Below are positions 1 through 32,067 of a stretch of 39,501 nucleotides of DNA, in pieces. The notes below the pieces were generated by a model, which searched no databases, was not told the origin of the DNA, and saw only the letters and a program-made list of their open reading frames with translations. The translations under genes and the position numbers were made by a program. Source of the stretch: Dirinaria sp. TL-2023a (lineage: Eukaryota); NCBI GenBank assembly GCA_051941275.1, contig JAVEBF010000049.1, forward strand, positions 1-39,501, written 5' to 3'. The first letter of the stretch is position 1; each line of letters begins with the position of its first letter.

Positions 1-2133
1 CGCCTTGCCGGCATCTCGGACGGCGCTCGTAGACTTGAGCGGGGTTGAGTAAGCGGAGGCAAGCAGATGCAAAATCTCGTGGTTTGAAATACTGACTTCG
101 AGCCAGAAAATCGCAGCTCGCTTTCGAGCTCGGCTATCAAATCAAGGAACAATCACCTCAGACGTGGGTGCTCTGGGTACATGCCGGAAATACGGCACGG
201 TTAGAGCAGAGCTTTCGGGATGTTGCCGGTTACCTCGAGATTCCTGGGCGGCAGGATCCCAAAGCAAATGTCTTTCGACTTGTCCACGACTGGTTATGTA
301 ATGGAAAGAGTGGGCGATGGTTGTTGATACTCGATAACCTTGACAATCCTGATCTTCTTTCTGAGGTTGGAGATACTAGCCAGCAAGGGCAAGAGACCGG
401 GGTAAATAGTGAATGCCGGCAGCCGATAACAGCATATCTCCCTCAAAGCCAGAATGGGTCCATTTTGGTTACCAGTCGAAGTAACGACGTTGCATTAAAG
501 CTTGTAGAAGAGAAGGATATCGTAGCAGTACAACCGATGGCCCCGACACATGCGCTGTCGCTATTCCAGAAGAAGCTGGGCCCCCTTGGCCAAAGCGATA
601 ACACCTCGGAGCTAGCAGCAGGACTAGAGTATATGTCGCTCGCCATTATCCAAGCGGCAGCGTATATCTCTCAGAGGGCACCGCGGTATTCCGTATAACG
701 ATATCTTGAAGACTATCGAAGAAGCGATCGCAAGAAGATGAATCTTCTGAACTACAAAGGAGGCCAACTCCGGAGAGACTGGGAAGCCTGAAACTTTATC
801 ATTATTACCTGGCAGATCTTGTTCGAGTATATATAACAAAAACGGCTATTTGCATCTAATCTACACTCGTTGATGAGCTTCTTTGACCGACAAGGCATCC
901 CAGAAACCCTGATTCGGAAGCGAACCGAAATTGGAAATGGTCATAGAAGCCAGGAAGAGCGCGATGAGCATGATAGCGAAGAAGAAGAAAACAAAAAAGA
1001 TAATAAAGATGATGTATCGGAGTCCAATGAGGAGGACGAGTTTGAAGACGACGTGCAGATGTTAAGAAATTACTTATTCCTCTCTATCAACATAGATCGT
1101 ACCTTTGAAATACACACACTGGTGCAATTAGCTACGCGGAAATGGTTGGAGGCCAACGGAAAGCTCGAGCAGTGGAAGCAGTGCTACATCAAGAACCTGT
1201 GCGCCGAGTTCCCAACTGGAAAGTACGAAAATTGGATGTACTGCCAAGCACTTTTTCCTCACGCGAAATTGGCAGTCACACAGCGACCGAAGAAGAAAGA
1301 ATTATTAAGAGAATGGGCTACACTATTATACTATGCCGCATGGTATACGTTGGAGAAAGGGATTATAACCGAGGCTATCGACCTATTTGAAATGGCGATA
1401 AAAGTAAGGAAGAAAATACTTGGTCAAGAGCACGAGGAGACTTTAAGTAGTATGAGCATGATAGGCCAAGCATACAGCTCAGGAGGACGGTGGACAGAGG
1501 CCGAAGAGCTGCAGGTGCAGGTGCTGGAGACAAGGAAGAGGGTGCTGGGCGAGGAGCATCCCAACACGCTGATCAGCATGGGCAACCTGGCTTCAACATT
1601 TGGGAATCAAGGACGCTGGAAGGAGGCCGAAGAGCTTGAGGTGCAGGTGCTAGGGAAGAGGGTGCTAGGTGAGGAGCATTCCAACACGCTAATCAGCATG
1701 GGCAACCTGGCTTCGAAATTTTGAAATCAAGGAAGGTGGAAGGAGGCCGAAGAGCTAGAGGTGCAAGTGATGAAAACAAGAAAGACGGTGTTGGGCGAGG
1801 AGCATCCTCATACGCTGAGCAGCATGAATAATCTAGCTTCAACATACAGCGATCAAGGACGCTGGAAAGAGGCCGAAGAGCTGCAGGTGCAGGTGCTGGA
1901 GACAAGGAAGAGGGTGCTGGGCGAGGAGCATCGCTCCACGCTGATCAGCATGGCCAATCTAGCATTTACGCTTAAATATCAAATTCATTTTGAAGAGGCT
2001 ATCTCTTTAATGGGGAAGCTGCTTCGAATCACGAAAACGGGTTCTCGGCCCTAAGCATCCAGACACGGAGTCGTTACTTCGAGTCCTTTATAAGTGGAAA
2101 AATAAAATAAACGAATATGAGCATTCATATTAA
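1..2133 (+). pseudogene. NLR-like NB-ARC + TPR (kinesin-light-chain-type repeats) gene, disrupted; 5' end lies outside the window
   Basis: Intron-split degenerate Walker A (SRTALVDLSGVE|KSQLA, intron ~49-106), WVHA, Walker B WLLILDNLD, GSILVTSR, and H.LVQ near 1110. These are followed by 42-aa TPR repeats (GRWKEAEELQVQVLETRKRVLGEEHP.TL.SM.NLA). In-frame stops at ~696, ~788, ~834 and ~1722, and a +1 frameshift near 2018. Confidence 0.9.
1489..1965 (+). repeat. ~4 tandem 126-bp TPR-encoding repeats with high nucleotide identity
   Basis: A ~64-nt stretch (gaggccgaagagctgcaggtgcaggtgctggagacaagg...) is identical at 1497 and 1869. The spacing of 372 equals 3x126 minus a 6-nt deletion in one unit. 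Confidence 0.9.
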
Positions 2134-2810: not shown

Positions 2811-3382
2811 TTGTAGATGTCCAGGAGGAGAAATAACACGGGAACAGTGACATATCAACTATATTTTCATAGATTCATGAGGGAGAGACTTCTGGGGTCT
2901 GAACCGTTGGTGCGTCTCGCAACAGGGTGCGTCTCTCTAGCCAGGGACGGACGTTACTGACTTTGACGGTACTGACCTCCATGGTACCAGAATTTCATGT
3001 GACTGATGGTTAGAATTCGAGGACTCTCGGGATTAAATGCATGCCCACTCTTTCTCCTATCTTCCTTCTGCCTTCAATGCTCTCTGCTCCTACATTTATT
3101 CAAATCTAGCTATATGATATTATAGAGAATGTTCCTATAGAAAGCAAGGTTTAGACCATTTAAAAACGTGACAAATAGACAATAACTAGTACTTTTTATT
3201 CAGATATCGACCGCCTTGCCGAAACAAGACCTATGTTTATGGCCTTACAAGACTATCCGCAACCTTCTCTTCGCTGCTTCACAATTAATACATATGACAC
3301 TACTTACGCCGCAAAATACGTTGGGATACAACTTCAGATTCTTTTACGTTTATTTGCTATTCAGAATCTTAGCCGAATTAAA

Positions 3383-3719
3383 TCATTTCTTCGACGCGTC
3401 CTCCACGGTGGACTTATAAAGATCTTTACAAACGGTATGATCAAAGTCTTTGGATAGTAGGTTAATAGGTAACGGGTACGATGCTCCCTACGCTCCGGTC
3501 AGCTTGAAATCGATGTAGCTGGTTCGTACCTACGATTTCCGATATTGTGGGAGGCCATTGTTCGTGATCGGTCGATCGATAGGTATAATACCTTCCGTTC
3601 CTGCGGATAATCACTGCAACATCTGCATGACACAATCGCGCCAGCTGATCTGCTTTTTTCATTAAGTTCGGTTTCCTTCTGGTGAACTGCTGCGTTTTGG
3701 CTTTTGCTGCATAAGGCAT
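3383..3719 (-). CDS. Small MADS-box (SRF-TF-like) protein, 2 exons (3719-3534, 3487-3383), ~96 aa
   Basis: MPYAAKAKTQQFTRRKPNLMKKADQLARLCHADVAVIIRRNGRYYTY matches the MADS core (F.KRK.GL.KKA.EL..LC...VA.II). A 46-nt GT..GCTGAC..AG intron joins it to GASYPLPINLLSKD...*. Confidence 0.8.
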
Positions 3720-4319
3720 ATTATGAAGTTGTTGCCCCAATTAGGCGGAGACGGGTTAGAAAGTAGATTGCTGACAATCGAACGAAGGTATCCTTGCCTT
3801 ATATACGTGGATAAGTATAGAAGTCTACAATGCTTACCCTCCAAAACTACCCTCCGATGTTTACTTTCAAGAGCCAATTCTGGCTTCTCCAAAATGATTT
3901 CTCCATTATTTCTGGATGCTTCCTGTTCTAGCCCCTGTTGACCCAATGGTTCGCAAAAGACCTTGATATTCGCGCCATGGAACGGACGCCATTCTGGACA
4001 ATCCTTAATCCCGAATAACTTGGATCCCTGTTGACTGCTCTACGTTCTTGAGCTTTCTTAGATATGTGCTTGTTAATGGCTTCCGTATTCGACTATCCTC
4101 CAGCTTACACCAAGTCTACGGCAACAGCAACCTAGAAGATTATTAATAAGCCTAGCAGTATGATTACTATTGTGATGGCCATAGTATTTATCACAAAATG
4201 TACGATATCAACTGATAGTTCTCCTACCCGTGATCGAAGGCCTTCAAGTGTTCGACCAAGGTCGCCTCGAGAGTCTCCGGCCAGATCCGGAGATGGCTCT
4301 ATCTTGGATTCGTATCAAG

Positions 4320-5539
4320 CTAGGTGTACTGCTTCAAGCGTCCTGCGATGGCACTGAAATCGTCTTCGTCCCGTAGCTTACCATATTGTACCAGACTTTC
4401 CGCTGCTGACCGCATAATCTCACACATCCTCGATATGTGCGCGTATGAATGGTGGATGTGCTGGACCAGGGACTTTAGATACGGATCAGTGTACCTTGTA
4501 GTGTTATAACTATAATGAGAGTCAGCAGAGTGTTCTTGCATAAATGGGTATATGACATTTTCCTGGCGATAGCGGGTCCACAAATTAAGAGGAGGCCTAG
4601 GCCAAGTCCTGGTATGCTGTCCCCGCTATCAGCAACGAACCCATCAACTAGTATTGACCATCGTCGCCCATGTCGCAGGTCCTTCTTGAGCGCTTGCTTC
4701 ACGCGCTCGTAATCTTGCAGGTTCCGATCTGCGTAGATATGTGTGAGGTATTCCTTGTGTGCCTTGTTGCTGTTGTTTTCTCCACTTCGGCGTGTATGCT
4801 TATGGATATTTTGTTTGGCCTGAGCTTCGGCAAAGAAGCTGGTGTAGCCGTCCAAGTTTCGCATCTCCGCGATCGATCGCCGCCATTGGTGGAGATCATC
4901 TTCCACATCCAAATGGCGGAGGATGAGATGATAATGCAATCGACGAACCTGTTTCGAGTTACCTTCTAGAGTCCATGTGAATACCTGATCTGATGCCATC
5001 GCAAATATCCCCTCCACCTTTAAAATGTCCCAGTAAGTTTTGAGGCAATGAAGGAGGTTGCTACGTGGCAAGTTTTGCACGACCATGTCGAGCGTATAGT
5101 ACTCCGACGTCCTTCTCTTGTGATGTTGCTTTGGTCCCTGACACGACTCGCAAAGCGCCCCGGGTGTGCCTTTTCCAGGAGGTACATGATTGGCGAATTT
5201 TTGCTGAGGTGAGCACGGCATGGAACACGAAAGGTTGCTGGCGTCAGTGATGCAGTCTTCATTAATGTATTCCATCCACGAATTGTCGCAGAGTTCAACT
5301 TCAGGCTCTAATACTAGCGACTCGGCAGCGGTAACACTCGTCAAGTAAGCTTTTGCTGCTTCCTGTCCCATAGCACTCTTTAAGTCATTAATGACCGCGG
5401 CGAGTCGCTGTCGTATGTTTTGTGGTACTTCCAAAGTCATGCCGGATAGCGGTAGCGAAAGTTGAAAGAGCCACGATCTTGCAGACATAGACTTGCGGAC
5501 CTTATGGGTCCGCAAGTATGGGGTTCTAGAAGGATCCAT
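4320..5539 (-). CDS. Hypothetical fungal orphan protein (at least 2 exons; start uncertain, 5539 or 5596)
   Basis: A 373-aa ORF plus a downstream exon (YNTTRYTDPYLKSLVQ...) joined by a candidate intron at ~4557-4511 with a GCTGAC branch site. The C-terminal helical region contains DLRHGRRWSILVDGF..LGLGLLL. Confidence 0.6.
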
Positions 5540-6224
5540 CTGACAATTCCTCCGCAAACCCCCACCAAAAACAATTGTAAGCCAACCGAATGTCATGATA
5601 TCAAGTGACTAGACGTTTCACATCCGTTTCAACGACAGCTGTCAACATCCTTCCTCTTGTGACAGCTCAACACCAATTTAGCCGCATCTCCCGGCTTTTT
5701 AATTGGGGTGAACCCAGCTATAAACGGTTTCACTTAAAAATAGATTTTGATTCTTCCCCTTCATTCTCCTTTTGGTATATATGATATAGCCATTTTTGTA
5801 GTATTTGCTGTCCTCTGTATGTCAGATATTATGCATTGGTTTGGAAAGGCAAGAACAATATCAACGCTATCTGTAGACTTTAAATACACATCTCTGCAGT
5901 AAGTCCTGTGAAATAATAAACCTCCAGACACTATATTCGCCAAACCTGCCATATCTTCAAACGTTGTTCTGAACAGATGTTCGATGTTTAAAAACTAGAT
6001 ATTTGAAGATGTATAGTGATGGATTTCCGTAAGTCTCAGAACGCATGTTGTCTTGAGCCAAGTGTTGCATAACATAAGATGTCCTAAGATGCAAGTCGTA
6101 GGACGATGGGTGTTCAAAGACGAACAACGTCTTAAAACGATCATAAGGTAGTATTGAGCCAGTGTTGTAAAAGGCAGCAACTGCAAAAGCCAGTACTGTG
6201 AAAGCTATTGTCAAGCCAGTGCCG

Positions 6225-10872: not shown

Positions 10873-12846
10873 TTATAAGACCTCCGCGATGCGCTCTAGC
10901 TTCTTCACTACATCCTGCTCAACCATTCGCTGCAGTCTTAGATCAATGCTGGTTTCGTCCTCTCCCAGCCACTCTGTTTCCTCGGTATCAACCGCTTCGA
11001 AACAAAGCTTGACGACTTGACTAAAAGCGTCACCGCATGCACTTCCAACTTGATACAAGCATGGCCTCAAATCTGCTGCGTCCGGGAGGAGATTTGATTT
11101 CCCTAAGAGCCACGACCGCACTTGTAAGAGTGAAGTCGGCTTAGCTTCCGACAGATTCAAGCCTACAAGGACCTCGACACGCTTCCATAAAGCAATTTCA
11201 AGAAGCACAACGCCGAGGCTATAGAGGTCGTATGATTTGCGATATATGCCGTCACTTTGACTAGATTGCGATCGCGGATGCCGATAAATGTCTTTCCAAG
11301 GATTGAATTTGGGTTTTTCCGTCATTTCATCAATAATACTTGGACGGGAAAGCTCAAATCCAGAGACCAATGGCTTACTGAGATCCAGTGGTTTACTGGA
11401 CGCGACTGGAAAGACAATGCTGTCCGCCCGCAGTGCTTTATGTAACCAACCAACAGCATGAAAGCTATTGACAGAGCGCGCTAAAACAGCACACAGAGAC
11501 GCACGCGCACTAAGTGACGGTACTGATTCTTGTCCCAGTATGTCTTGAAGGACGATGATGTCAGGGGCCGCATCGTCATTGAGCGAGTTCTCGAATGCAA
11601 TGCCAAATCGATCCGCAACACTCTTGTTCGAAGCCTTTACATAGCCGAGACATAGCGGAGCCCTGAAACCTTCTGGCTTGACAAAGCATAGAAGATTCGC
11701 AAGCAGGCTTATTCGACGCTCAATTTGCTCGCTCTGCACATACAGATCGGTCCATTCTATCCACACTCTCCGTTCTTGATAAGTACCGCTGGATCGCCGC
11801 TGAAGGGTCTCATGCTGAGAAGTGTTTTTTGTAAGCACAAATTTATCTAGTGGGAGCGGAGTACTTTTAGAAAGAAGATTCGAATCTACAAAATCCGGGC
11901 TTTTTGGTATACTTGACAGATTTAATTGAATCTTAATCTCTGTAAGCTGTTTGAGATAATCGTTCCTCTGCCTCTGGGCCGCTGCCTCCTCTACAGCTGT
12001 CCGAGACAAAGAGTAGTTGTATGGTCCACCAATTCTGGGTTCAAAATCCTGCGCGTTCCTCGGGTGTGGTTCAAGGGCTTTGACCAGAGTCGTGAGGCTA
12101 ACCAGGTCATTACGAACCTGCAAAATCTCTAGATAGCTCGTATTTATTGTTTCTTGCAGCCTGTGGAGCTGCGAATTATCCAGGAGGGATATCAAATATG
12201 TATTGAGACCCTCTAGCCTTGCTATCAGTGCTTCAAAGGAATCTTTGTCCACGGTCACCCAAACAAGACGTTTTGGTTCCATCACGATTGTCCGTAGCCT
12301 TTTGCCACTTTGAGCCACAGCGGTAGCGAGTCCGTGAACTCGACTGAGGGTGCCGGCTTTCGGATATGCGAGATTATTCTTTTCCCCAAGGGCGCCATCA
12401 CGTTCTGGTATCATTCCTAGACTCTGAAGGTTGAGCTCTCGTTTTTGATCATCACTCCAAAGTACACCTTCTGGTGACTTCATATTTTCGTATTTGCCAT
12501 TCTTCTCAGCGAAACTCTCGAGTAAGGTCTTGACTTCAGCAAGGACGGCTATCAGAAGAGACCGATTGACTCGAAAATCCTTGCAGCCGATTCCTTCCAG
12601 GTCTAAGATTCCCATTTCTAGACTGAAGTTCAGAAAGCGTTGCTGCTCGATCTGCAGCCGCAAGGTGAGGTAGCGATATGTTTCTGGGAAATTTGCTGCT
12701 TCCCGATAGAATTTGAAGCCTGCTCAGATTCAGTACAGTTTTATCTTGCGCTATCATGTGAAACCTTTGATGCATTCGTCAGTAACCTGAATGATAAGAG
12801 CCGTTACACCGACTGCAGCTCCCAACAGTGACAGAGGATCTGCCAT
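10873..12846 (-). CDS. HeLo-domain + pseudokinase protein (MLKL-like architecture), 2 exons (12846-12765, 12719-10873), ~642 aa
   Basis: The spliced N-terminus MADPLSLLGAAVGVTALIIQVTDECIKGFKFYREAANFPETYRYLTLRLQIEQQRFLNF aligns by eye with the HET-S HeLo N-terminus. The HeLo end motif is KRLVWVTVDKDSFEALIARLEGLNTYLISLL. The C-terminal kinase fold has degenerate motifs VWIEW, HKALRADSI, SGFELSRP, YRHP and DLYSLGVVLLEIALW. Confidence 0.88.
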
Positions 12847-13398
12847 ATCGTTTGAAACAAATTCTTTTGATGCAGCGCAATAAAGAGTGTCGCTCCTGGA
12901 AATTGTATTCAGTGCAAGATCTTAAAAGTAATGACTCAACGGATAAGCCGAGCTGGCGTGCTGGAGCCCCTTGTCAAACGTGCCAAAGTTTGTTTCAGCG
13001 TGAGCGGCACGACCCCTCTCAGCCAAGGAGCCTGCTCTCTTGCATAACTCAGCTATGACGTCAAAAGCTCCGGTTGGAGATCTGGCCTTATAGCATACTC
13101 CTGCAATCTGTCCAAAGCCCTGAGCACGATACAGTCCGTTTTGTGTCATAAGGTAAAAAAGATCGACGGTTATCGGCATCCAGGAGCATGCAAGTCTATT
13201 AAAAGATATTTGGACGAAGGTTCACGCCGAAAAGTCCAAGCCGGTGTTAAACAAAGCCCATCCCTTTGCAAATACACTGGCAGGCTCTGACGTTAGATAT
13301 CATATTAGCTTGCTCGACTTAAAGCTACAGTGCACATAATTATAAGTCCATATACGCAGGCGAATATTACCTAAAATTCGACTTGTTTGAGTGGGACG

Positions 13399-16300
13399 AT
13401 GAGACCCTTCACGAGGAGATTAGGAGCAGGCAAGAATGTCGACAACGAGAGCAATATACCCCACTCCTCACATTCAACGGGATGCCAACATTTCGACCAG
13501 CAGAAGTACTTGGAAGCTGAGCAGGTTTTTCGGCAAACAGTTCAAGGGCGCGAGAAAGTGTTGGGCAAAGAGCATGCCAATACGCTTATGAGCAAACATT
13601 GGCTGGCATTGTCTGTATACAAACAAGAGCGATATCCTGAAGCCGAACAGCTGTTCCGACAAACAGTTCAAGGGCGCGAGAAAGTGTTGGGCAAATATCA
13701 CCTCGATACGCTTATGAGTAAAGAGTGGATTGCAGCATCTATATACGATCAGGAGCGATATTCTGAAGCCGAACAGGCTTATAGACATTTGACCTACGAA
13801 TATGAGAGAGCGTTGGGCAAAGAGCATGTCAATACACTCCAGAGCAAACAATGGCTGGCAGCACTATTACTCAATGAGCAAAATCTGTTTTCTGAAGCCG
13901 ATCAGCTTCTTCGGCAAGTAGTTCAAGGACGAGAAAAGGTGCTAGGTGAAGAGCATACCGATACACTCATAAGCAAACACGATCTAGCATTCTCACTCCT
14001 TCAGCAAGAACAATTTTCTGAAGCCGACCAGCTTCTTCGGCAAGTAGTGCAAGGACGAGAAAAGGTGTTAGGGGAAAGACATGTTAAAACTCTTAACAGT
14101 AAGCATCTGTGGGCTGAATCACTTCACGGATTAGGAAGATATGTCGAAACAGAGCAGTTTTTTCGGCAATTGTCACAAGAACAAGAAAAAACACTGGGTA
14201 TAGAGCATAATGACACACTTACAAGCAAACAATGGCTAGCACAATCATTGAGTAAACAAAAAAAGTATATTGAAGCCGAACAGTTGTTTCAGCACGTGGC
14301 TCAAGGGCGCGAAAAAGTGTTAGGAAAAGAGCATCCACATACGCTTATGAGTAAAGGCTGGCTAGCACGATTACTCAATAATCAGAAACAGTACCCTGAA
14401 GCCGAACAGGCTTATCAACACCTTATTTACGGATATGAAAGAGCATTGGGCAAAGAGCATGCCGATACATTCAGGAGCAAAAACGGGCTGGCAGAATCTC
14501 TTTATGGGCAGAAAAAGTATGCTGAAGCCGAACAAATGTTCCGACAAGCAGCTTACGGGCGTGGGAAAGTATTAGGCGAAGAGCATGCCGATACGCTTAT
14601 GAGCAAACATTGGCTGGCAGCATCTACATACGAACAAGAGCGATATTCTGAAGCAGAACAAGGTTTTCGACAAGTATTACAAGGACAAGAAAAAGTTCTA
14701 GGTAAAGAAGATGTCGAAACACTCAACAACAAAGACTGGCTAGCACAATCACTAAGTAGACAAGAAAAGCATACTGAAGCCGAACAGTTGTTCCGACAAA
14801 CAGTTCAAGGGCGCGAGAAAGTGTTGGGCAAAGAGCATGTCGATGCGCTTATGAGCAAACATTGGCTGGCAGTTTCTATATACGATCAAGAGCGATATTT
14901 TGAAGCTGAGCTTCTCTTGCAAGACGCAATGCTTAAATGTGAAAAGATCCTAGGACTGCAGCATATCGATACTTTTCGGACTAGATATTGGCTAGCTCTT
15001 ACGCAGCATGGATGCGAGAAATATTCTGATGCTAGAAAGCTCCTCCAGCAATCAGTCCAAGAACGAGAAGAGATGCTAGGTCAAAACCACATTGAAACTG
15101 TTAAAAGCAGACATTGGTTAGCACGTACGCTTTATGTACAAAAAGAGTACACAGAAGCGGAAGTGCTTTTACGGCAGTCAGCGAATGATCGGGCACAGAT
15201 GTTAGGTCAGGAGCATCTCGAAACTCTCGAAAGCAGGCACTGGTTTGCACGTACGCTTCACGAGCAGGGAAGACATTCTGAAGCAGAAGAGATCTTTCTA
15301 CAGGTGACGCATGGACGGGATAAAGTCTTGGGTTGGGAACACAGCAAGACCCTCGAAAGCAGGCACTGGCAGGCAGACACATGCTACAAACAGAGGAAAT
15401 ACAGTGAAGCCGAACAGCTCCTGGAACAAGTAATGCAGGGACGAGAGAAGATACTAGGTGTAGAGCACCAGGACACCAAAGACAGTAGGAGTCTTTTACA
15501 GGAAACACTGCGGGCCATAAGGGCACTCAAAGGAGGAACAAATGCAACAGGAATCGCAATACTTGGCCGCTTGGGCGAACTTTTCGAAGACAAACAGAGA
15601 AGCAACGCTAAGTATAGCGATCCGGAAATTAGTCAAATCTCATCATTGCTGAAGCACTCCAATCCGCGATGGAGCCGAGTTCCACGAACCTACGTCATAC
15701 TCCGGACTATAGGCTATTTGAATCTTTTGGACGAATTCATTGACCTTGGATTTTCGGACTACTGGTTCCCGGTTACCGAGAGAAATCTTCCGGGGTGTCT
15801 TCATCCGAGTCATCGATCGGAATTCATAGCTGTTCAGGAGTTAGTGTTAACTAAATCGATCGGTCTTGAAAAAGGCGAAGACGGGCAGCATGCTCATTTC
15901 CGGCGACACGAACCGCTACCGTTTGAGGAGAAAGGGGTATTGGGGTCGGGAGGGTTTGGGCAGGTAGACAAGGTGCTGAGCCTGGTGAGTTTCAGGGAAT
16001 ATGCCAGGAAGCGAGTGTCACGAAGGCAAGTCTTTGGTGGACGGGGAACAGAAGAGATGAAACAGTTGGTAGCCGAAATTGCAATCCTGAAACGCCTAAA
16101 GCACCGTCACGTGGTCGAACTTCTGGGGAGCTACACTGATCCGAAGTACATTGGGTTGATCATGTCCCCAGTGGCAGACATGGACTTATCGGCCTATCTT
16201 GCACAAGCGGATGTTACAAGGCATGGAGAGTTGCGGACCTTCTTTGGATGTCTAGCGCGGGGCCTGGAATTTCTCCATGAGCAAAAGATTCGGCACAAAG

Positions 16301-16839
16301 ACATCAAACCTGGCAACATCCTGGTGCATGGTGGCAATATACTCTTCACCGATTTTGGTCTGTCGGCTGATCTTGCAGACGCAGACGGCAGTACCACATT
16401 CAGCATGGTGAACGGGATAACACCTAGATATTGCGCACCAGAAGTGGCTTTATTTGAGCCACGTAACACGGCGTCTGACATCTGGAGTTTAGGTGTTGTC
16501 TTTCTTGAAATGACGGCTGTCCTCAAGGGGAAAGCTGTGGAGTTCATTCAGGAATTCTTGAAAGGGCACGGATCTAAACAAGCCTTTGTTCGGACCAACC
16601 CTGCTGCGTTGACAGAGCTTGTTGTAATACTGCAAACAAGCGGGTACATGTCGGACAACCAAGCGCTGGAATGGTCTCGACAAATGCTTCAGATTGAGCA
16701 GCAGCATCGCCCTACGGCTGTCACACTTACTGCATCCATTATTGGTGCACGGCAATCCGCAGATGGGAGCGGACCGTTTTGCGGCATCTGTTGCATGTCA
16801 CTGGATGATGACTCTACTGACGTGTCCAGCGATTTTTGA
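13399..16839 (+). CDS. TPR-repeat (16 x 42 aa) + Ser/Thr protein kinase, single long ORF of ~1146 aa
   Basis: First ATG at 13399. TPR units (EAEQ.FRQ..QGREKVLG.EH..TL.SK.WLA) are followed by a linker (WSRVPRTYVILR..FSDYWFP) and a kinase with GSGGFGQV, YARK, HKDIKPGNIL, DFG, TPRYCAPE and DIWSLG. Confidence 0.93.
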   Translation: MRPFTRRLGAGKNVDNESNIPHSSHSTGCQHFDQQKYLEAEQVFRQTVQGREKVLGKEHANTLMSKHWLALSVYKQERYPEAEQLFRQTVQGREKVLGKYHLDTLMSKEWIAASIYDQERYSEAEQAYRHLTYEYERALGKEHVNTLQSKQWLAALLLNEQNLFSEADQLLRQVVQGREKVLGEEHTDTLISKHDLAFSLLQQEQFSEADQLLRQVVQGREKVLGERHVKTLNSKHLWAESLHGLGRYVETEQFFRQLSQEQEKTLGIEHNDTLTSKQWLAQSLSKQKKYIEAEQLFQHVAQGREKVLGKEHPHTLMSKGWLARLLNNQKQYPEAEQAYQHLIYGYERALGKEHADTFRSKNGLAESLYGQKKYAEAEQMFRQAAYGRGKVLGEEHADTLMSKHWLAASTYEQERYSEAEQGFRQVLQGQEKVLGKEDVETLNNKDWLAQSLSRQEKHTEAEQLFRQTVQGREKVLGKEHVDALMSKHWLAVSIYDQERYFEAELLLQDAMLKCEKILGLQHIDTFRTRYWLALTQHGCEKYSDARKLLQQSVQEREEMLGQNHIETVKSRHWLARTLYVQKEYTEAEVLLRQSANDRAQMLGQEHLETLESRHWFARTLHEQGRHSEAEEIFLQVTHGRDKVLGWEHSKTLESRHWQADTCYKQRKYSEAEQLLEQVMQGREKILGVEHQDTKDSRSLLQETLRAIRALKGGTNATGIAILGRLGELFEDKQRSNAKYSDPEISQISSLLKHSNPRWSRVPRTYVILRTIGYLNLLDEFIDLGFSDYWFPVTERNLPGCLHPSHRSEFIAVQELVLTKSIGLEKGEDGQHAHFRRHEPLPFEEKGVLGSGGFGQVDKVLSLVSFREYARKRVSRRQVFGGRGTEEMKQLVAEIAILKRLKHRHVVELLGSYTDPKYIGLIMSPVADMDLSAYLAQADVTRHGELRTFFGCLARGLEFLHEQKIRHKDIKPGNILVHGGNILFTDFGLSADLADADGSTTFSMVNGITPRYCAPEVALFEPRNTASDIWSLGVVFLEMTAVLKGKAVEFIQEFLKGHGSKQAFVRTNPAALTELVVILQTSGYMSDNQALEWSRQMLQIEQQHRPTAVTLTASIIGARQSADGSGPFCGICCMSLDDDSTDVSSDF
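13513..15500 (+). repeat. Array of 16 tandem ~126-bp TPR-coding repeats
   Basis: 16 EAE-type units counted. An identical 44-nt block (tgttccgacaaacagttcaagggcgcgagaaagtgttgggcaaa) occurs at 13652 and 14789. Confidence 0.9.
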
Positions 16840-22068: not shown

Positions 22069-24147
22069 TTAGCCTTCTTCACCCGGACCAGGACCCCCTT
22101 GTCGTCCCTATCTCTTGTTAGTCTAGGCATTCGTGTAGTTCAGGTCTGACTTACCATTTGCCTTGCCTTCAATATTTCATCGCAAAGTAACAGGTTCGAT
22201 GCTATGCCTGAACTGGACGCTATGCAATTGCGCAGAACTCTGAACGAGTCATATACACCCTCCTGGATCGGATCCATCGGCTCACCGGTCTTCAGGTCAA
22301 GCCCGACTATATTGCCCTCTGATTGCTCATCCTGCAAAGCGGCCACTGTGGAGCTTCATTAACACCCTTTTGAAAGAGGGAAACACGAGATCACTTACAG
22401 CAATCTTGTATGTCATGCCCTGAATTAGCAGCCAAAGTCTTCGGAATGACTAGCAAAGCATCTGCAAAAGCCGAGACGCCGTACTTAGCTTTCCCTTTCA
22501 CTTGTTTCCTAAAGTCCTCGCTCGATAAGTGAGCGGCACACGCTATCTGAAAGGCTCCTGCTCCTGGTACAACGCTTTTATCGACGATCATATTGTAAAC
22601 ACTCCGCAGACCATCGCGCACAGCATCTGTGATCTGCGTTATTGTATGGGCATTGGGTCCTTTGATTAAAAGAGTAGAAGATTTTGGATCTTTGACGTCC
22701 TCCTGCGCCTGGAATTAGCGAGCTGAAATTGGACAAGCTTTGGATGTCTTACGATGAAAGTATATTTCTCTTCTCCCAACTGATGTTCATAAACGAGGCC
22801 TGCCCAGCCAAGAACATCTGGGGTTAAATCGTCCACGCTGTTTTGTGCAGTTCCGCCGCAGACCAGCTGTAATCTTTCCATATTCCTTCTTTTAGCACGT
22901 CGCAGAGCAAAGATCCCGTTCTTGACCAGTACATCAAGACTCAGTGGATCTATTCCTTTCTGGTTGATTATGACAAAGCCTTTCTTTGGATCATTCCCAC
23001 AGACCTCCTTTTTCAGCTCCACGATCTTTCGGAGTTTGTCATCGACAAATCTCCGCTCACTTTCGACAAGCTTTTCCCGCTGCTCTGCATTTGAATAGTA
23101 GAAGCCCGAGTTGACCTCCGACTTTTCGTACTCTAGACTTACATTCAAGGTGAGAATATAAGCATTTTCGACTCGCTTTGGCATGTCTGGATGCCTAGCG
23201 CCGTGATCGAGCGCTAGTCCCTTGATTAACGAGGTATCAGATGCGGTTCTGTGTTGCATTTTCATGATCTCGACCATATGAAGGTCCGGCTTCGCTGGAG
23301 GATGGTAGATCGATAAGACGGCGTCGACGATGGCGGGCGTAAGCTTTCCAGCAAGTGTTGCGTTAAGCTTTGTTGCTAACGATGTCCGGGCTACCGAAAG
23401 TAGGAGCTCTCTGTCAACTTCTTTCTGAAGCTTGAATGAGTCCAGAAACTACAGCCGAATTAGTAGGGATTCATCTGGCAGCTTGCAAGTATTAACTTTG
23501 AGCGTTTCTGTTTTAGCAATTTCGTAACCGTCTGTAATTATTCGTGGGTGCAGTCCTTCTGTTATGTATCGATCTGCTTGCTTCAACAACTCTCCAACCA
23601 TCAAGACCACTGATGTTGTTCCATCTCCGGTGATATCGTCTTGCGCAGTAGCTGCTCGAGCAATCATGACCTATGGCCCTTAGCATACGTGGCACAAGAC
23701 CCACAAAGCAACGCCTACCGCAGTCGGGTTTTGTATTTGCTGAGTTTTGGTCAGCCTTCCTTGAAAAAATTTCCAACTGAGAGACGGACCATTTCCCTCA
23801 ATAGAACGTTTCCATCCTTAGTCAATTTGATCTGCTTGCTGGTAAGCACGATTTTCTAGTGGCGAAAAACCTGGGATCAGGCCCATACAGCTCCTGCCCC
23901 ATCCACAAGCCTGAACAACGTAAGCCATAGCCTTTTACCAAAACTCCGAAATGTACAAACATTTTTATGGTACCAGTTGGTCCCAGGTTCGACTTGAGAA
24001 CATTTTGCAAGCCTTCACCAGCTGATATATTGACCTGAAGGGCTTCTCCTCGCCTCTGAATCGAGTCAGTGTCTGGGTATAGCTTGGAAAAGACTCAATA
24101 CACACCCTCGACTCCGCTTTAGGATTCAGAAGCTGTGCAGCGGACAT
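22069..24147 (-). CDS. CCT6: T-complex protein 1 subunit zeta (chaperonin CCT), multi-exon
   Basis: [77 protein letters not shown] and [11 protein letters not shown] are all present. Confidence 0.97.
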
Positions 24148-24456
24148 AGCTTAACAATTCAGGCTTAGATAGAAAAACTTAGCATTGCAATCTCGAGTCC
24201 ATCCTCATAATTTCTGCCTTGTGTTATCAAATATGCTTTTGTACTCGGCAGAGCGCGCAAACAATTTTGACGCGGCGCGCTAGGGCTGAGATTGAATGAT
24301 CCCTGCAACATTAAGCGAAGCTTGAAAATCATCTCTACCTTACATCTCGAGCTTCTTGGGCCTTGCTACAGGGCAAGGATTGCACAATTACTTCTGCCTG
24401 GGAAGCGTGCTATCCGCTTATCCTTCGGCGTGCAGAGGTCAGCCCAGCATCTCAAG

Positions 24457-26262
24457 ATGTCGGTCGACTATCTTCTGCATGAGTCCTCTGTGGGCTATGC
24501 GATATTTCAAGTCGTCCACCAACCAGACACAGTCGGCAACCGATTGAAAGAAGTTCAAGATTCCGTACAGGTATATATTTGCAGTCGATGGGAGCAGAGA
24601 GTAGTTTTGACATCATTCTAGGATCTGGCCAAATTTGGGAAGATGGTGAAGCTCGTCAGCTTCGCGCCGTTTCAGTACGAGATGATCAATTAATTGACCC
24701 CAGTAAAACCCGTTACTGATTGGCATACAGAGGTGCAGCCCAGGCGCTAGAGAATGCGAACGAAATATCCGAGGGCATTGCATCGGAGTATCTTACGTCG
24801 CTACTAGAGGTCAATCTGCCCAAATCGAGCAAGAAGAGCAAAGTCACTCTTGGGGTCTCGGATAGGAATCTCGCTGGTAGTATTAAAGCCGCTTTTCCCG
24901 GCATGGAGTGCGAGACGGGGGACACGAGCGAAATAGTCCAAGATATGCTTCGTGGCATACGGCAACATGCGCCCAAGCTTCTGAAGCAGCTACAAGAAGG
25001 GGACGTTGAGCGGGCACAGCTTGGTTTGGGGCATGCATACTCAAGAGCTCGGGTTAAATTCAGCGTGCAAAAGAACGACAACCATATAATCCAAGCCATT
25101 GCGACATTAGATCATTTGGACAAAGCTATCAATACTTTTTCCATGCGAGTCCGCGAGTGGTACTCATGGCACTTCCCAGAGCTTATCCGGATCGTCTCCG
25201 AGAACCAGGCGTATGCTCGATTAACCCTGTTTATTCGCGACAAAAAACGCCTGTCAGATGATGATCTGCCGGAGCTGACTACGCAAGTCAATGATGACGA
25301 GACAATTGCAAGAAGCATCATCGATGTAGCAAAAGTGAGCATGGGCCAGGATCTCTCCGAGAGCGACATGGAACACGTCACAACATTCGCATCGAAAGTG
25401 GTCAGCTTAGCAAGCTATCGCAGAACATTGCACACCTACCTGATCGAAAAAATGGGCGTCGTGGCACCGAACCTGGCAGCGCTCATCGGCGAGGTGGTCG
25501 GCGCGCGACTGATATCCCACGCGGGCAGCTTGACGAACCTGTGCAAGTATCCCGCGTCGACGGTGCAGATCCTCGGCGCCGAAAAAGCGCTCTTCCGGGC
25601 CCTGAAGACGAAAGGCAACACGCCGAAATACGGCCTGATCTACCACTCCTCCTTCATCGGCAAAGCCGGGCAGAGGAACAAAGGCCGGATCTCGCGCTTC
25701 CTGGCCAACAAATGCTCCATCGCATCGCGGATCGACAATTTCTCCGAAGCGCCGACGACGAGGTTCGGCGACGCGCTGAGGAAGCAAGTCGAGGAACGAC
25801 TGGATTTTTATGACACGGGCGCTCCGCCCACGAAGAACGAGATGGCTATGGTCTGTGCTTTCCCCCGCGCCCCCCGCAGGTGAACGCATGCGTACTATGA
25901 TGACTTTTTAACTAACATGACAATAACAGCGCAACGCAATGGACCACGTCCTGGAAGAAATCGACGTCCAAGACCCGACCGCAACAGTGGACAAAGACAC
26001 CGAAATGGCTGACGTCGCCCCGCGCGCCGTCCAGAAGCAGGAAAAACAGAAAAAGGACAAGAAGAAAGATAAAAAGAAGGAGAAAGAAGAAAAAAGGGAA
26101 AAGAAAGAGAAGAAGAAGGAGAAGAAGAAGCGGAAGCATGATGAGGTGGTGGATGGTGGTGGTGGTGAGATCGAGAAGAAGCCTGAGCTGCCCAACGGGG
26201 AAGAGCTGGCGGAGGAGAAAAAGAAGAAGAAAAGGAAGAAGTATAAAGGGACCGAGGAATGA
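24457..26262 (+). CDS. NOP56: Nucleolar protein 56 (box C/D snoRNP core); introns 24571-24621, 24675-24730, 25851-25929
   Basis: MSVDYLLHESSVGYAIF, AQLGLGHAYSRARVKF, MRVREWYSWHFPEL, YPASTVQILGAEKALFRALKTKGNTPKYGLIYHS and GRISRFLANKCSIASRID, plus a KKE/D-rich tail. Confidence 0.96.
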
Positions 26263-26942
26263 TAGTCCTTCTTTTCTTTTTCCCCATCCTTCCCTCAAAC
26301 TCCTCTCTAAACCTATCAATCCTTTGCGAATATTTATTTCTGCGCGAAAGGCCAGCATGGATGGACGGAGTTTTTACCTAGGCACGTAGGTAGATCAAGC
26401 GCTGCGGAACGAAGGTATCTTCAGCGATTTAATTGTACGTTTTTTTTTTTTTTTAGCCCAAACAAAAGATCTCGGCGAAATGGGGATGTAGCACGATCTT
26501 CGAGTGAGTACTGTACTCGAAAGCGAGATGTAAAAATCCTTAGAAGCCAAAAATCAATTGCATACAACCAACCAACCTGAGGGGATGCATATACGTTCTC
26601 AAAAAGCCAAGCGCTTTGGTCTTCTGCCCTGAACCGCACCCCCAAAGAGTTGGTCTGTCGAGATTGGGAAAGATCAGGAAAGAAAAGAAGAATTACACCA
26701 TTAATTAGTTAGTCAACTTTCGTGATAGGTAGGTTTTAGCAACAAAAATCTTGATATCTTATGTTACTGATACACTTCCGAGCAGCACTATATGTAACCT
26801 CTCCATGAGCCACGCTCAGTTATCTGCTTGTACGAATACACATATCATGATCCCCGATATCCCTCAACTCTCCGTCCACCTTATGCGTTCAATCTACAGC
26901 ATACGAGGGAGGGGCTCTGCTGCCATTTCTAAATCTGGCATC

Positions 26943-26945
<3 letters not shown>

Positions 26946-26975
<30 letters not shown>
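26946..26975. repeat. (TC)n microsatellite just downstream of the RTF1 stop codon
   Basis: About 15 TC units read directly. Confidence 0.9.
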
Positions 26976-26977
<2 letters not shown>

Positions 26978-26979
26978 CT

Positions 26980-29057
26980 TCAGATATCGATCTCGATTCC
27001 AAAGTCCATCGCACCAATGATCTCATCATCCGCGCAGCTACGTCCGATGCGAGGCAACCCTCCTTGCGGTTGCTTCAACGGAGTAACCTGCCTCTTCACC
27101 TTCGGTGTCGGCGTTCCGCCTCGACTCCCAGTGACTGGGGTACCCGCTCGGCTACCGTCGCTCTTCCCGTCGAACAAGTCATCGATTGCCTGCTTCGCTT
27201 TCGGCACGGCCAGCTTATCGGCATTGACATCGTAGTGGGTTTTCGCCCTCGTCTTGACACGCGCGAAGGGATCCATGACTCCCTCACCACGGGCAACGGC
27301 TTCCATTGCGAGCCTCTCCGCTTTCTTCTCTGCCCGCTGCGCTTTACGGACGTCTTCAGTGTTGGCCTTGCGGTTTGCACGATTGAGTGCTGCAAGGCGC
27401 TCTTGCTGAGTCAAGCCTTCCTTGGGAGGGCTGGGAGGACGTTGGTGAAGTTTGGTGCCAAAGGCAAGCTTAGGGCCATCAATAGCGGCGAGCTCTGCAT
27501 CGAGCTGAGCGATGGCGGTTTCATCACCACGCTTCTCGGCGAGGCCGCGGCGGCGCATGATATCTTCTCGTTCAATGTGTGCGAAGCGGGCTTGGAGGAC
27601 GCCGGCACGCTTGAGTTTAACGTCAAGCTCTTCATTAGTCCAGGAGCGATTTATCAGGTTATTGATGTCCGCGATTTTGGAGATGAGGGAAGTTTTGGTG
27701 GGAAGGACCAAATCTTCGGATGTCATGGTCTTGATGTACCGTTCAAACTCCGCCTGTATATATTAGTTGAAGATTGGACATGCAGAGAAAACTTAAATAC
27801 CGATGTGAATTTCTGGTTCGAGCAGGCTATGAAAGGCATGTCTTTCTGAGACTTGCCGATGGCGACCGTAGCGTATTGGTTGGTAGGGAACGCTTTACCA
27901 TTAGCACTCTCAATAGCGTAATGCTTGCCTTCATTAAAGCCTAGGCTTGTCAGCTGCAGAAATTGTGAATACCTTGATCGAAATACCTGTGATCTGTGCA
28001 ACACGATAGATGGATTCGCCGGAAGCTTTGTCGATTCCAATATTGACACGGACGTAGCAACCCGTTATAGCTTCGTTAAAGCCAGGATAAAAGCAGACCT
28101 GAGCAAAATTATCGCGGCCCACGCGTACACGCTCGTAGTCCACTAGCTGTGCTGGTTCTTCCGCACGCTTTGTTTGAGCAGATGGGGCACGCTCATCCCA
28201 CTCAACTTCGCTGTCCCCATCGGCATCTGCATCAGACTCGTGGTCAAGAGGGGAAGACTCCTGCAGCTTGCGATTGCGACGTTCTTCGCCCTCAAGACGA
28301 CGTTGTTCAACTCGAGCCTTATTCTCTTCACGTTGGCGAGAGTAGGCTTCGATACGAGAAGAGTCTCCAACTTTCCGTCCGCCAAGTGTTGTCTTTTGGC
28401 GAGTGCTCTTTCGCTTTGGGCTATCTTCCAGCTCTGCAGTATCGGCTTTACGTTTCTTCTCGGATTTTGCTTCAGCGTTTCCACGAGCTTGGAGAAGGCG
28501 TCGAAGATGCTGATCTTGTAGTTTGCGTTCTCGGAGCTGCGCACGCTCGGCTAGGATGGACTCACGCTGAACTTCGGATAAGGACATTATCTCTCTCTTA
28601 TCTTTTTCAGAGAAGAACTGGCCATCGACAGGAAATATCGGGCTGTCGTCACCGACTTCCCTCGCGGGTGAGGTCTCTGATTCGGATTCTGACATTGGGG
28701 CGGATTGTAGGGACTCTGGAGACGAAGGGTTTGAAGAACTGATGGAAGGTGTAGTGAGCAGCATACTCTGTGATGGTGTAATGAGGATCAAGTGCAGAAC
28801 ACTTACGCCTCCCCTTCTTCGGAATCATCCTTCTTAGCCTTTCTGCGACTCCGGCTAACAGTTCCGTTCACTTTGATTGTAGGGTTTTGAGCCATTCTAG
28901 GCTGTGTAGACGAGGCTCTATTCATGCTGTCGCTTTCGTGGCCAGCGTGCGAGGAAGGAGAGGAAGCCTTTGCGTCACTAGGAATGTGCTTGGTGTCATC
29001 TTCCCCAGAAGAGTCGCCTCCCGCAAGCGCGAGAAGCTCCGCATCCAAATCCGCCAT
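26980..29057 (-). CDS. RTF1: Paf1 complex subunit Rtf1 (Plus-3 domain), multi-exon
   Basis: MADLDAELLALAG start, HMD-like SLSEVQRESILAERA, Plus-3 region GCYVRVNIG...YRVAQI...MPFIACSN, and C-terminal LAALNRANRKAN...DPFARVKTR. Confidence 0.93.
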
Positions 29058-29568
29058 AGTGTGTTAGCGCTTTGTTGCTTCACTACCTAATTCTGAGGCT
29101 ACGTTGCTATAGTGACGTGACGAAGCCCGCTTCGTACTTCCAAAGTTCAAGGTAATAGCCAAAAGATAATGCCAAGTATAGAATTTGGGAGAGTCCCAAA
29201 ATGTTGAACGTCGATATTTATTAAAACAGGAGGACTCTTGAAGTCCAGGAATCGAGCCAAAGTCGTAGGTTGGGAAGAACCTGCTCAAAAAGGTCTTGAA
29301 TCATTTGAGGAATCGAGAAGAACAATGAAAAGCTACTCCAGTGAAGTGGTTTTCGGGACACCCGTTGAGAGTGAAGCTCCGACGCTAAAATAGACGCGCT
29401 TTTAGCGCGGTCTGCCCCGAGCGATAGCGGGCCGAGGAGGCCTCGGGCGTGTCGGTTCATCATAACCCTAATACAACCCTTGGATATGAATTGAGCATAG
29501 GTAGGTACCTTAGGTACAGCTAGGTGAGGTATTGGATTGCTGTCACTTGCGTCAGAGTAATTTCCACT

Positions 29569-30397
29569 ATGAACGTAGCCAAAGCCCTCCGATCAACCTT
29601 CCAACAGTCTCTTTGCCACAGACATCCGATCTATGATTTTCTCCTCCCTAACGTCTCCCAGCTCCCTCGTTCGAGAGCGCGACATGCATCCACTTCCGCT
29701 CCAGTACTTGAATCCGCATCTCCATCTCCCCTTTCAGAGGAGACACCTCCAAAAGCAAAAAAGCGAAGACGTCCCCTTTCCCGAGAACAGCAGGAATTCT
29801 TAGACAGTGCCGTACGTACATCTCTTCTTCCCGTCCATAGCTATTTCACGCTAACGATTCCAGCTCCGAGTGAATCATGCCGGCGAACTCGCCGCGACGC
29901 TCATATACAGCGCCCAAACACCTCCGATTCTAAAATCGCATCCCCATCTCCGTTCTCTGATGCATCACATGTATGCCCAGGAAGCAGGACACTTCTCAAC
30001 TTTTTCCTCGCTGCTTGCGAAACACCGTGTACGTCCCACAGCCATGTATCCGGTGTGGACAGCCGCTGCCACCATATTAGGGTGGGGGACTGCGATCATG
30101 GGACGGGAAGCCGCCATGGCCTGTACAGAGGCTGTAGAGACAGAGATTGGCGGACACTACAACGGACAAGTGAGGGTGTTGCTGCAATGGATGAGAGAAA
30201 TGGAGGATCGAGGGGAAGAGGTGGGCGATGAAATCCGGGAATTGGTCGGTACGTTAAAACGGATACGTGACGAAGAACTAGAGCACTTGGACGAGGCAGT
30301 GGAGCAAGATGCGAAGCAAGCTGGCGGATACACGCTGTTAAACCGTGTGGTGAGAAGTGGATGTAAAGGAGCCATCTGGATTAGTGAAAGAATTTGA
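29569..30397 (+). CDS. COQ7: 5-demethoxyubiquinone hydroxylase (Coq7/Cat5); intron 29812-29863
   Basis: LRVNHAGELAATLIY, QEAGH, AAMACTEAVETEIGGHYN, IRDEELEHLD and GCKGAIWISERI, with a mitochondrial-leader-like N-terminus. Confidence 0.95.
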
Positions 30398-30478
30398 TTT
30401 CGTTGATGCTGCTCTTGGATATACAAAAAGCATTTATGCCCTTTCGTCTCGAGCAGCGGTCGACGGCCAGATTTTTAT

Positions 30479-31643: not shown

Positions 31644-32067
31644 GGCCGGCGAACGATGCTTGTGATATTCGACAAGCCACTTGGCTGCGAGAATCCGCTT
31701 GTCTGCCGGTTCCGCCATCTCCCGCTGTATCGAAGCACGTGATGAATAGAATGTACAAAACTACTATATTCAGTTGAAAAAGCAAATTTGGTGTAAGGTA
31801 TGCAATCTTGAAGCTTGATGTCTAACATGCAACCAGCTTGATGCTCGTATGTAATTACAACCGGTCTCGTCCTTTCTTGACAAAGAAGTATCTGTTCCCT
31901 ACATGGAGGGATAGCCTGGGTAGGAACGCTGGGCACCCATCCGTCAATGCCGCCTGCTGCAGGTTTCGAATGCGCCTGACTATGCTTGTGGATAATCGCT
32001 AAATCGAATCGCTAAGCTGAACTCAAAGGCTAAAATAGAAAGATTCCTCACAATGAGTAGACCCAAT

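Follow-up and report, generated by a model that had tools for sequence, protein, structure and literature searches.

The 39,501-nucleotide stretch of DNA of Dirinaria sp. TL-2023a that was analysed here (contig JAVEBF010000049.1 of assembly GCA_051941275.1; the whole stretch is called the window below) carries two divergently transcribed genes that we consider to belong together. Gene A encodes a HeLo domain joined to a pseudokinase, and gene B encodes an array of tetratricopeptide repeats (TPRs) joined to a protein kinase. The catalytic motifs are dead in the former protein and live in the latter, the pseudokinase has an affinity to that of MLKL and carries an invariant hydroxyl residue in its activation loop, and the linkage of the two genes is conserved, with co-divergence of their kinase-fold domains. 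We lean, with due reserve, towards the view that the two genes constitute a conserved sensor/executioner cell-death module, a fungal analogue of the action of RIPK3 on MLKL.

Layout of the locus

The start codons of gene A and gene B are found at 12846 and 13399, at a distance of 553 bp, in agreement with the original prediction made from the DNA, which spoke of two intact divergent genes about 550 bp apart. Gene A is encoded on the minus strand in two exons (12846..10873), from the ATG at 12846 to the stop codon at 10873-10875. Gene B consists of a single open reading frame (ORF) on the plus strand (13399-16839) and specifies a protein of 1146 amino acids. The features of the locus, in window coordinates, are the following:

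10873..11868, minus strand: pseudokinase of gene A (DUF7580 region) and stop codon; kinase fold with degenerate motifs
11869..12084, minus strand: linker of gene A, long helices between HeLo domain and pseudokinase; brace-like in the AlphaFold2 (AF2) model, at low confidence
12085..12719, minus strand: remaining HeLo domain of gene A, the part in exon 2 (Pfam PF14479)
12720..12764, minus strand: predicted intron of gene A, 45 nt, GT..AG, phase 1; position backed by orthologue protein models
12765..12846, minus strand: exon 1 of gene A, 82 nt (27 codons and 1 base), encoding the hydrophobic N-terminal HeLo helix
12847..13398, no strand: shared intergenic region of 552 bp between the divergent start codons
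13399..13494, plus strand: N-terminal 32 residues of gene B ahead of the repeats (from the ORF)
13495..15513, plus strand: array of gene B, 16 TPR_10 units of 42 amino acids, one spacing being 43 (Pfam, unit register and Tandem Repeats Finder, TRF)
15514..15921, plus strand: linker and conserved pre-kinase segment of gene B (alignment of 38 relatives)
15922..16725, plus strand: protein kinase domain of gene B with all catalytic motifs (Pfam Pkinase)
16726..16839, plus strand: C-terminal tail of gene B, with a Cys-rich motif, and stop codon (alignment of relatives)

The second exon of gene A (12719-10873, minus strand) is uninterrupted up to the stop codon. The junction between the exons and the N-terminus are identical in annotated orthologues (of Pseudogymnoascus, Venustampulla, Xylaria and others), and an exon-1-like ORF is present about 125 bp 5' of exon 2 in 13 of the 20 related loci examined. 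No splice joint was reported from four sets of contigs compared with the locus; in one of these, a presumed RNA set, a 322-nt contig ends at 12718, beside the predicted start of exon 2 at 12719, which has no clear meaning for the intron. In the 5 of the 20 related loci that allowed both start codons to be located, these lie head to head about 0.3-0.63 kb from each other, and the 552-bp region is presumably a bidirectional promoter. The intron-containing genes of the window mark it as fungal, and for both proteins the nearest named relatives are found in lichen-forming Lecanoromycetes.

Gene A encodes a protein of MLKL-type layout

All the sequence and fold traits of MLKL-type proteins for which gene A could be tested are present in it. 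With exon 2 alone, the HeLo family PF14479 was matched at E 2.7e-24 and 86.6 bits (cutoff 23.2), over residues 2-213 of the exon-2 translation and profile positions 19-205 of 205. Exon 1 supplies the hydrophobic helix of the extreme N-terminus, which is conserved in the annotated orthologues and for which a membrane role is predicted. By analogy with characterised HeLo domains, the domain may well be able to attack the plasma membrane.

The C-terminal 330 residues adopt the protein-kinase fold. Residues ~290-616 of the AF2 model have a predicted local distance difference test (pLDDT) score of ~80-95, at least 500 kinase chains were matched by Foldseek, and VIA-align superposed the domain on MerTK (Z 22.8, root-mean-square deviation 3.1 A, 269 residues) and on BRAF (Z 22.3). 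The family DUF7580 was matched at residues 403-611 with 26.3 bits, slightly below its cutoff of 27. Two stretches between the HeLo domain and the pseudokinase are modelled as helices (residues 160-217 and 234-271, pLDDT ~45-72), which, at this low confidence, would resemble the brace of MLKL.

The relation to MLKL itself emerged from a family profile of 35 members, the alignment of which was also used to build the AF2 model. In a search of the PDB with this profile ten MLKL pseudokinase sequences rank first (best 4m68, E 8.1e-8), followed by the HeLo structure of HET-s (2wvo, E 9.4e-5) and then by the TKL kinases LIMK1 (6e-4) and IRAK4 (9e-4). The family profile alone was informative in this respect, as the single sequence of gene A yielded 0 matches at E <= 1. 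More specifically, the profile alignment sets the GFELSR of the family against the GFELSK of mouse MLKL, and thus the GFE that stands instead of DFG is common to the family and MLKL.

The loss of the catalytic motifs extends over the whole family. In 35 of 35 members the Asp of HRD is replaced by Ala or Gly, the Asp of DFG is replaced by Gly and the Gly-rich loop (GxGxxG) is absent. Gene A itself has HK-Ala in place of HRD and GFE in place of DFG, and where strand beta3 ends, its protein has no Lys. The activation loop of every member (35 of 35) includes a hydroxyl residue ahead of the sequence EKP (31 Thr and 4 Ser), and this invariant Ser/Thr is, judged from the alignment, the best candidate phosphosite. 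The family counts 1741 representatives (at 50% identity) at E <= 1e-30 and is ascomycete, as far as the Atlas shows.

Gene B encodes a repeat-bearing kinase with intact motifs

Residues 33-705 of gene B are made up of 16 units of 42 amino acids (TPR_10, E 4e-105), with a TRF period of 126 bp; the units have an average identity to one another of 46% at the amino acid level and of 58% at the nucleotide level. TPR_10 arrays are typical sensor repeats of NOD-like receptors (NLRs; NOD stands for nucleotide-binding oligomerisation domain). The Pkinase domain comprises residues 842-1109 (E 1.4e-41), with the G-loop at 849, the beta3 Lys (in YARK) at 868, HKD at 966, DFG at 985 and APE at 1013. An alignment of 38 relatives showed the beta3 Lys, the alphaC Glu, HKD, the Asn and DFG to be invariant in all 38; the G-loop and APE are also present in gene B, and the catalytic residues are either invariant or at least 90% conserved. 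Gene B is thus predicted, from these motifs, to be a catalytically competent Ser/Thr kinase.

Two further elements are conserved around the kinase domain. The pre-kinase segment has many invariant columns across the 38 relatives, and the more distant partner kinases described below match this segment too. The Cys-rich motif at residues 1127-1132 (CGICC at 1128; window 16777-16794, plus strand) is at least 90% conserved in the 38 relatives; the idea of an acylation or metal site by which the kinase would reach a membrane is pure speculation. The best solved match of the kinase is DAPK2 (E 2.5e-23), and the best 60 of 1384 or of 2384 solved matches list DAPK1-3, BRSK2, EGFR, PLK2, ASK1, ULK3, CaMK, PKA and similar kinases. 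The kinase family exceeds the orthologue group, with 1042 matches among 8000 candidates, of which 120 were listed as relatives.

Neither protein carries a NACHT, NB-ARC, amyloid-motif or RHIM family of Pfam at E <= 0.01. Likewise, a regular-expression search for the RHIM core [IV]Q[IVLC]G and a search for a PP-like amyloid pattern yielded no occurrence in either protein. The structural reading of the original prediction is right: it had described a HeLo domain with a catalytically degenerate kinase fold in the one gene, and 16 TPRs with a fully motif-bearing kinase in the other. Its analogy between gene A and MLKL has been strengthened by the first rank of MLKL in the profile search and by the GFE in common. 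Its characterisation of the system as 'NLR-free and amyloid-free' holds for this locus; in close relatives of the kinase, however, an NPHP3_N module of NACHT type or WD40 repeats take the place of the TPRs.

Conservation of the gene pair

A HeLo-pseudokinase gene and a TPR-kinase gene have consecutive locus tags in Protoblastenia rupestris (003985/003986), Gyalolechia fulgens (001338/001339), Gyalolechia sp. 1 (003128/003129), Pseudogymnoascus australis (005509/005508), Venustampulla echinocandica (07780/07779) and Mollisiaceae sp. (001190/001191), and tags two apart in Gyalolechia marmorata (007180/007182). These seven named species belong to the Lecanoromycetes and Leotiomycetes. Four further pairs have both genes on contigs of equal size (376301, 26265, 8733 and 8839), and a single contig of a relative at ~95% identity spans gene A, the spacer and the beginning of gene B. 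In Dothideomycetes, single gene models encompass HeLo, pseudokinase, TPR and kinase (Elasticomyces elasticus, 1339 aa; Curvularia clavata, 1517 aa). These models represent real fusions or merged tandem neighbours, and either way the genes are adjacent and co-oriented. A pairing that is conserved across three fungal classes is not due to chance; it is not universal either.

A scan of metagenome contigs yielded 80 loci (numbered with the prefix L), which form 43 clusters at >= 93% nucleotide identity. Clusters with a pseudokinase at least 48% identical were taken as orthologue clusters (n=7, of which 6 are informative, L011 being left out for insufficient flank) and those with a pseudokinase 30-45% identical as distant clusters (26 informative). 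A TPR-kinase adjoins the HeLo-pseudokinase in 6 of the 6 informative orthologue clusters. It is divergent and upstream in four of them, namely the large cluster (9 of 11 loci), L010, L012 and L017, and in tandem in the other two, downstream in L015 and as a remnant-like ORF of only 172 codons in L014. A gene-B-like kinase was recognised as divergent neighbour in only 6 of the 26 informative distant clusters (L021, L059/L063/L066, L047, L053, L079 and probably L041); where the gene is covered in full, the partner is a kinase with ankyrin (ANK) repeats in L021 and a kinase with C-terminal TPR_10 repeats in L059/L063/L066. A kinase match was considered gene-B-like if it reaches into the pre-kinase segment or has at least 35% identity, and all such matches in the 977,347 bases of the loci sit in a gene adjoining a HeLo-pseudokinase gene.

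Other kinases in these loci were rejected as partners. Those of L030, L039 and L048/L055/L057 reach 30-32% identity, which is confined to the kinase core (208-236 bits to Pkinase), and that of L034/L035/L037 reaches 32% and is interrupted by two in-frame stops. All of these are located 1.6-3.8 kb downstream, in convergent orientation, and look like ordinary or decayed kinases.

Some loci show peculiarities of their own. The ORF of 172 codons at L014:2790-3305 looks decayed and fuses a TPR-like sequence to the distal end of a kinase. Similarly, the end of the HeLo domain and the pseudokinase are all that remains at L006:10001-11293. L079 has, besides its divergent upstream kinase, an ORF with NLR-type DUF7779 and TPR_10 (L079:8814-11366, minus strand) directly downstream of, and convergent with, the HeLo-pseudokinase gene, and so represents, next to the window (see below), a second NLR-type gene near such a pair.

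The two kinase-fold domains have diverged in concert. The Mantel correlation between them is r 0.94 over 22 pairs and r 0.89 over 16 orthologue pairs, values that were reached in 0 of 5000 permutations each, and r is 0.73 in a paralogue-rich subset of 8 pairs. Maximum-likelihood trees of the two domains have 9 of 19 splits in common, where shuffled labels gave 0.18 on average and 2 at most (2000 trials).

The surroundings of the pair were compared over 10-kb flanks with those of the nearest cluster. The element at 3322-4754 of the window is the sole one in common, and none of the genes of the right flank of the window recurs. As the flanks differ while the pair is adjacent, the pair has been kept as its surroundings changed.

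The test that the original prediction had set for itself turned out in its favour: other genomes, from three fungal classes, have the orthologues of gene A and gene B side by side, and the kinase-fold trees of the two are largely congruent. Taken as a whole, the interpretation given in that prediction is partly supported.

Variation in putative sensor module and repeat number

The sensor modules have been exchanged around a constant kinase. In relatives of gene B the same kinase is found behind WD40 repeats or behind an NPHP3_N module of NACHT type. TPR and ANK sensors were seen adjoining a HeLo-pseudokinase; the WD40 and NACHT-type modules were seen in kinase relatives for which the neighbours were not seen.

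The arrays also vary in length. The partner ORF has 1198 (L001), 955 (L023), 703 (L003) and 609 (L007) codons within one cluster at >= 93% identity. Compared with L023, L003 is shorter by exactly 756 bp (6 x 126) and L007 by ~1008 bp (8 x 126), the flanks being 96-99% identical. The repeats inside the TPR array of the large cluster are 84-87% identical at the DNA level. These unit differences look like repeat-number polymorphism.

Neighbouring genes in the window

The common element at 3322-4754 matches L004, L005 and L008 at 63-78% identity, on both strands (tblastx), and is overlapped by an ORF (4475-5608, minus strand) to which no Pfam family was assigned. The other side of the window (22666-39499) is occupied by housekeeping genes for a TCP-1/cpn60 chaperonin, Nop (snoRNA-binding), a Plus-3 domain protein, COQ7 and Sec1, none of which was found in the flanks of related loci. 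At 96-2036 (plus strand), ~9 kb past the 3' end of gene A, lie the fragments of an NLR-type gene, unrelated to gene B, with NB-ARC, DUF7779 and TPR_10. The fragments occupy several frames, the start of the window truncates them, and they may represent a decayed or an intron-rich NLR. The TPRs of this gene are ~40-46% identical to the TPR arrays of the partner kinases of related loci (tblastx).

Proposed mechanism and alternative explanations

In the mechanism that we favour, gene A would be an executioner of the MLKL type, the HeLo domain of which is restrained by the linker helices and the pseudokinase switch. The TPR_10 array would provide the input, by binding a ligand or protein or by clustering, and would thereby activate the Ser/Thr kinase of gene B. 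This kinase would phosphorylate the activation loop of the gene A pseudokinase, likeliest at the Ser/Thr before EKP, and the phosphorylation would free the HeLo domain to oligomerise and permeabilise the membrane. With the sensor repeats fused to the kinase, both a NOD module and an amyloid relay would be dispensable. We infer the binding between the two proteins, the phosphorylation of the activation loop, the direction of control, the sensing by the TPRs and the death outcome from the observations given above.

A wider proposal, which we put forward tentatively as possible, is that filamentous ascomycetes own a kinase-to-MLKL death axis, in which dedicated kinases on interchangeable sensors phosphorylate the activation loop of linked HeLo-pseudokinases. 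Phosphorylation-gated killing would then be old or recurrent in eukaryotes and not an animal invention, and the variable arrays would be receptors for non-self or pathogens that operate without a NOD module or an amyloid relay.

A number of observations speak against the favoured mechanism. Regarding the proteins, no RIPK is present in the best 60 of 1384 or of 2384 solved matches to the gene B kinase. The structurally nearest chains to the gene A pseudokinase are MerTK, BRAF and SYK, with MLKL not among the 50 matches listed (Z 20.5-22.8), and the HeLo part of the AF2 model has a low confidence (pLDDT 30-60). The gene B kinase and the gene A pseudokinase share no more than 24% identity over 121 residues (E 0.008), and are not recent duplicates of each other. 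Regarding the sensor, the most dynamic fungal NLRs are known for near-identical repeats, and those of gene B, at 46% (amino acid) and 58% (nucleotide) identity, are less alike; moreover, the differences in repeat number could be the result of collapse in short-read assemblies. Regarding the linkage, such a neighbour is missing from 20 of the 26 informative distant HeLo-pseudokinase clusters, which have at most an ordinary-looking kinase at some distance downstream, and L006, an orthologue-cluster locus with a truncated HeLo domain, has no partner within 10 kb upstream. For the TPR-kinases of Lepraria finkii, L. neglecta, Puttea exsequens and Xanthocarpia ochracea, no HeLo-pseudokinase occurs among the matches listed from a contig of equal size, whether proteins of similar or of shorter length were searched. 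Within one distant cluster, the loci L062, L067 and L068 (each with at least 6 kb of upstream sequence) are without the kinase that is present in their sisters L059, L063 and L066 at >= 93% identity. Finally, the congruence of the trees is expected from common descent alone, given vertical inheritance of both genes.

One alternative is that the module is real and has the opposite sign. The kinase would then restrain the MLKL-like protein, by constitutive phosphorylation or by binding, and death would follow when the kinase or its TPRs are disturbed, for instance by a pathogen effector, in the manner of a guard or antitoxin. We consider this unlikely. The linkage and the domain evidence fit it equally well, and a shared divergent promoter would give balanced co-expression of killer and restrainer. 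The homology between L062 and L059 starts ~0.7 kb upstream of the HeLo-pseudokinase, within the start of the kinase gene, and the spacer of L063 has an insertion of ~1.85 kb. As L062, L067 and L068 kept the HeLo-pseudokinase and not the kinase, the pair can be uncoupled, which is, however, odd for a pure restrainer: an intact killer that is devoid of its essential antidote should be lethal, yet such haplotypes were found. In addition, the only characterised precedent, that of RIPK3 acting on MLKL, is an activating one (established knowledge, and in line with the available part of PMC12881547).

A second alternative, to which we assign a similarly low probability, takes the locus as one of allorecognition, of the heterokaryon-incompatibility type. 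Polymorphic TPR arrays would recognise the product of a non-self allele within the species, upon which the kinase would fire the executioner. The differences of 756 bp and ~1008 bp between arrays with nearly identical flanks, the range of 609-1198 codons of the partner ORFs and the presence or absence of the partner in a sister cluster are all compatible with such a locus. According to PMC12881547, incompatibility genes of fungi typically encode polymorphic repeat proteins and are linked to death effectors. However, the loci derive from short-read metagenome assemblies, in which repeats may collapse, and may stem from more than one species. In contrast to many het specificity regions, both the kinase and the pseudokinase domain have been well conserved from class to class.

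Signalling without killing appears improbable to us. In that case the HeLo-pseudokinase would be recruited to the membrane and act there as a scaffold or channel for a stress or immune pathway, just as plant MLKLs can confer immunity apart from death, and the very large size of the family (the 1741 representatives at E <= 1e-30) does suggest varied roles. Nevertheless, all characterised fungal HeLo or HELL proteins are cytotoxic once activated, as stated in the portion of PMC12881547 at hand, and the hydrophobic N-terminal helix that is required for membrane attack is conserved in gene A.

That the two genes are functionally unconnected and neighbours by descent only is very improbable: although the vertical inheritance of a conserved block could produce both adjacency and congruent trees, and most distant clusters stand without such a kinase, the adjacency persists over Lecanoromycetes, Leotiomycetes and Dothideomycetes despite flanks that vary even inside the Lecanoromycetes, it outlasts a switch to tandem order (L014, L015) and a possible fusion, the distant paralogue pairs repeat the theme with other types of repeat, and every gene-B-like kinase match in the 977,347 bases adjoins a HeLo-pseudokinase.

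The activating sensor/executioner module thus remains the reading that we prefer. The pair is a testable candidate for the way in which fungal HeLo executioners that are devoid of a prion domain are triggered, and it allows phosphorylation-gated death of the MLKL type to be examined outside animals in a compact unit of two genes. Natural variants are at hand for this purpose, in the form of tandem or possibly fused genes, ANK or TPR sensors, kinase relatives with WD40 or NACHT-type modules, and haplotypes without the kinase. If true, the mechanism would take its place beside amyloid templating and protease-gasdermin pairs as a third type of immune signalling in fungi. It would inform the evolutionary origin of necroptosis and provide mechanistic studies with a compact, genetically linked system of sensor, kinase and pore.

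Comparison with known systems

The similarity to the RIPK3/MLKL system lies in both partners. Gene A combines an N-terminal helical domain, predicted to attack membranes, with linker helices and a pseudokinase in which GFE stands for DFG and the catalytic Asp is lost. Among solved structures, its family profile matches the sequence of MLKL best. The proposed partner, gene B, is a catalytically intact Ser/Thr kinase. However, by its matches this kinase is of the DAPK/CaMK type and not RIPK-like, and no RHIM core was found in it. Moreover, the sensor repeats are fused to the kinase in gene B. To our knowledge, the animal RIPK3 and MLKL genes are not physically linked, unlike gene A and gene B.

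In the fungal NWD2/HET-S, HELLP and HELLF clusters a sensor gene with superstructure-forming repeats likewise adjoins a gene for a HeLo-type executioner, as described in the available sections of PMC12881547. The present pair differs in that gene B is devoid of a NACHT or NB-ARC module, in that amyloid motifs are missing from both proteins, in that the regulatory C-terminus of gene A is a pseudokinase and not a prion-forming domain, and in that the relay proposed here would be phosphorylation instead of amyloid templating.

The plant MLKLs (AtMLKL1-3 and wheat Pm13) share the succession of HeLo domain, brace and pseudokinase with gene A and act in immunity, according to the accessible parts of the plant sources. 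Auto-repression by the pseudokinase has been proposed for them on the basis of cryo-EM (10.1101/681015, available in part). A dedicated, adjacent activating kinase, in contrast, is not reported in the accessible parts of these sources.

A comparison with the fungal NLRs reveals a partial overlap. Kinases are a listed class of signalling or effector domains of fungal NLRs in the available part of PMC10197012, and the relatives of gene B with an NPHP3_N (NACHT-type) module or WD40 repeats ahead of the same kinase come close to this arrangement. Gene B itself, however, is without a NOD, and its repeats are N-terminal and its kinase C-terminal, which is the reverse of the usual order of effector, NOD and repeats.

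MLKL homologues have been reported in fungi and plants (PMC11476962, available in part), and fungal HeLo-type proteins with a pseudokinase domain, of the same layout as gene A, are mentioned in a figure legend of PMC12881547. The accessible text around these mentions of HeLo- or HELL-pseudokinases gives no partner gene, activation route or genomic context. A full-text search of the literature (supplements excluded and with few subscription journals) returned no paper that describes linkage between a HeLo-pseudokinase gene and a kinase with repeats. This agrees with the statement of the original prediction that no pair of this arrangement had been characterised, with the restriction that the combination of HeLo-type domain and pseudokinase was already in print. 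Thus, as far as the literature was searched, it is the conserved pairing of this known layout with a repeat-bearing kinase that is new.

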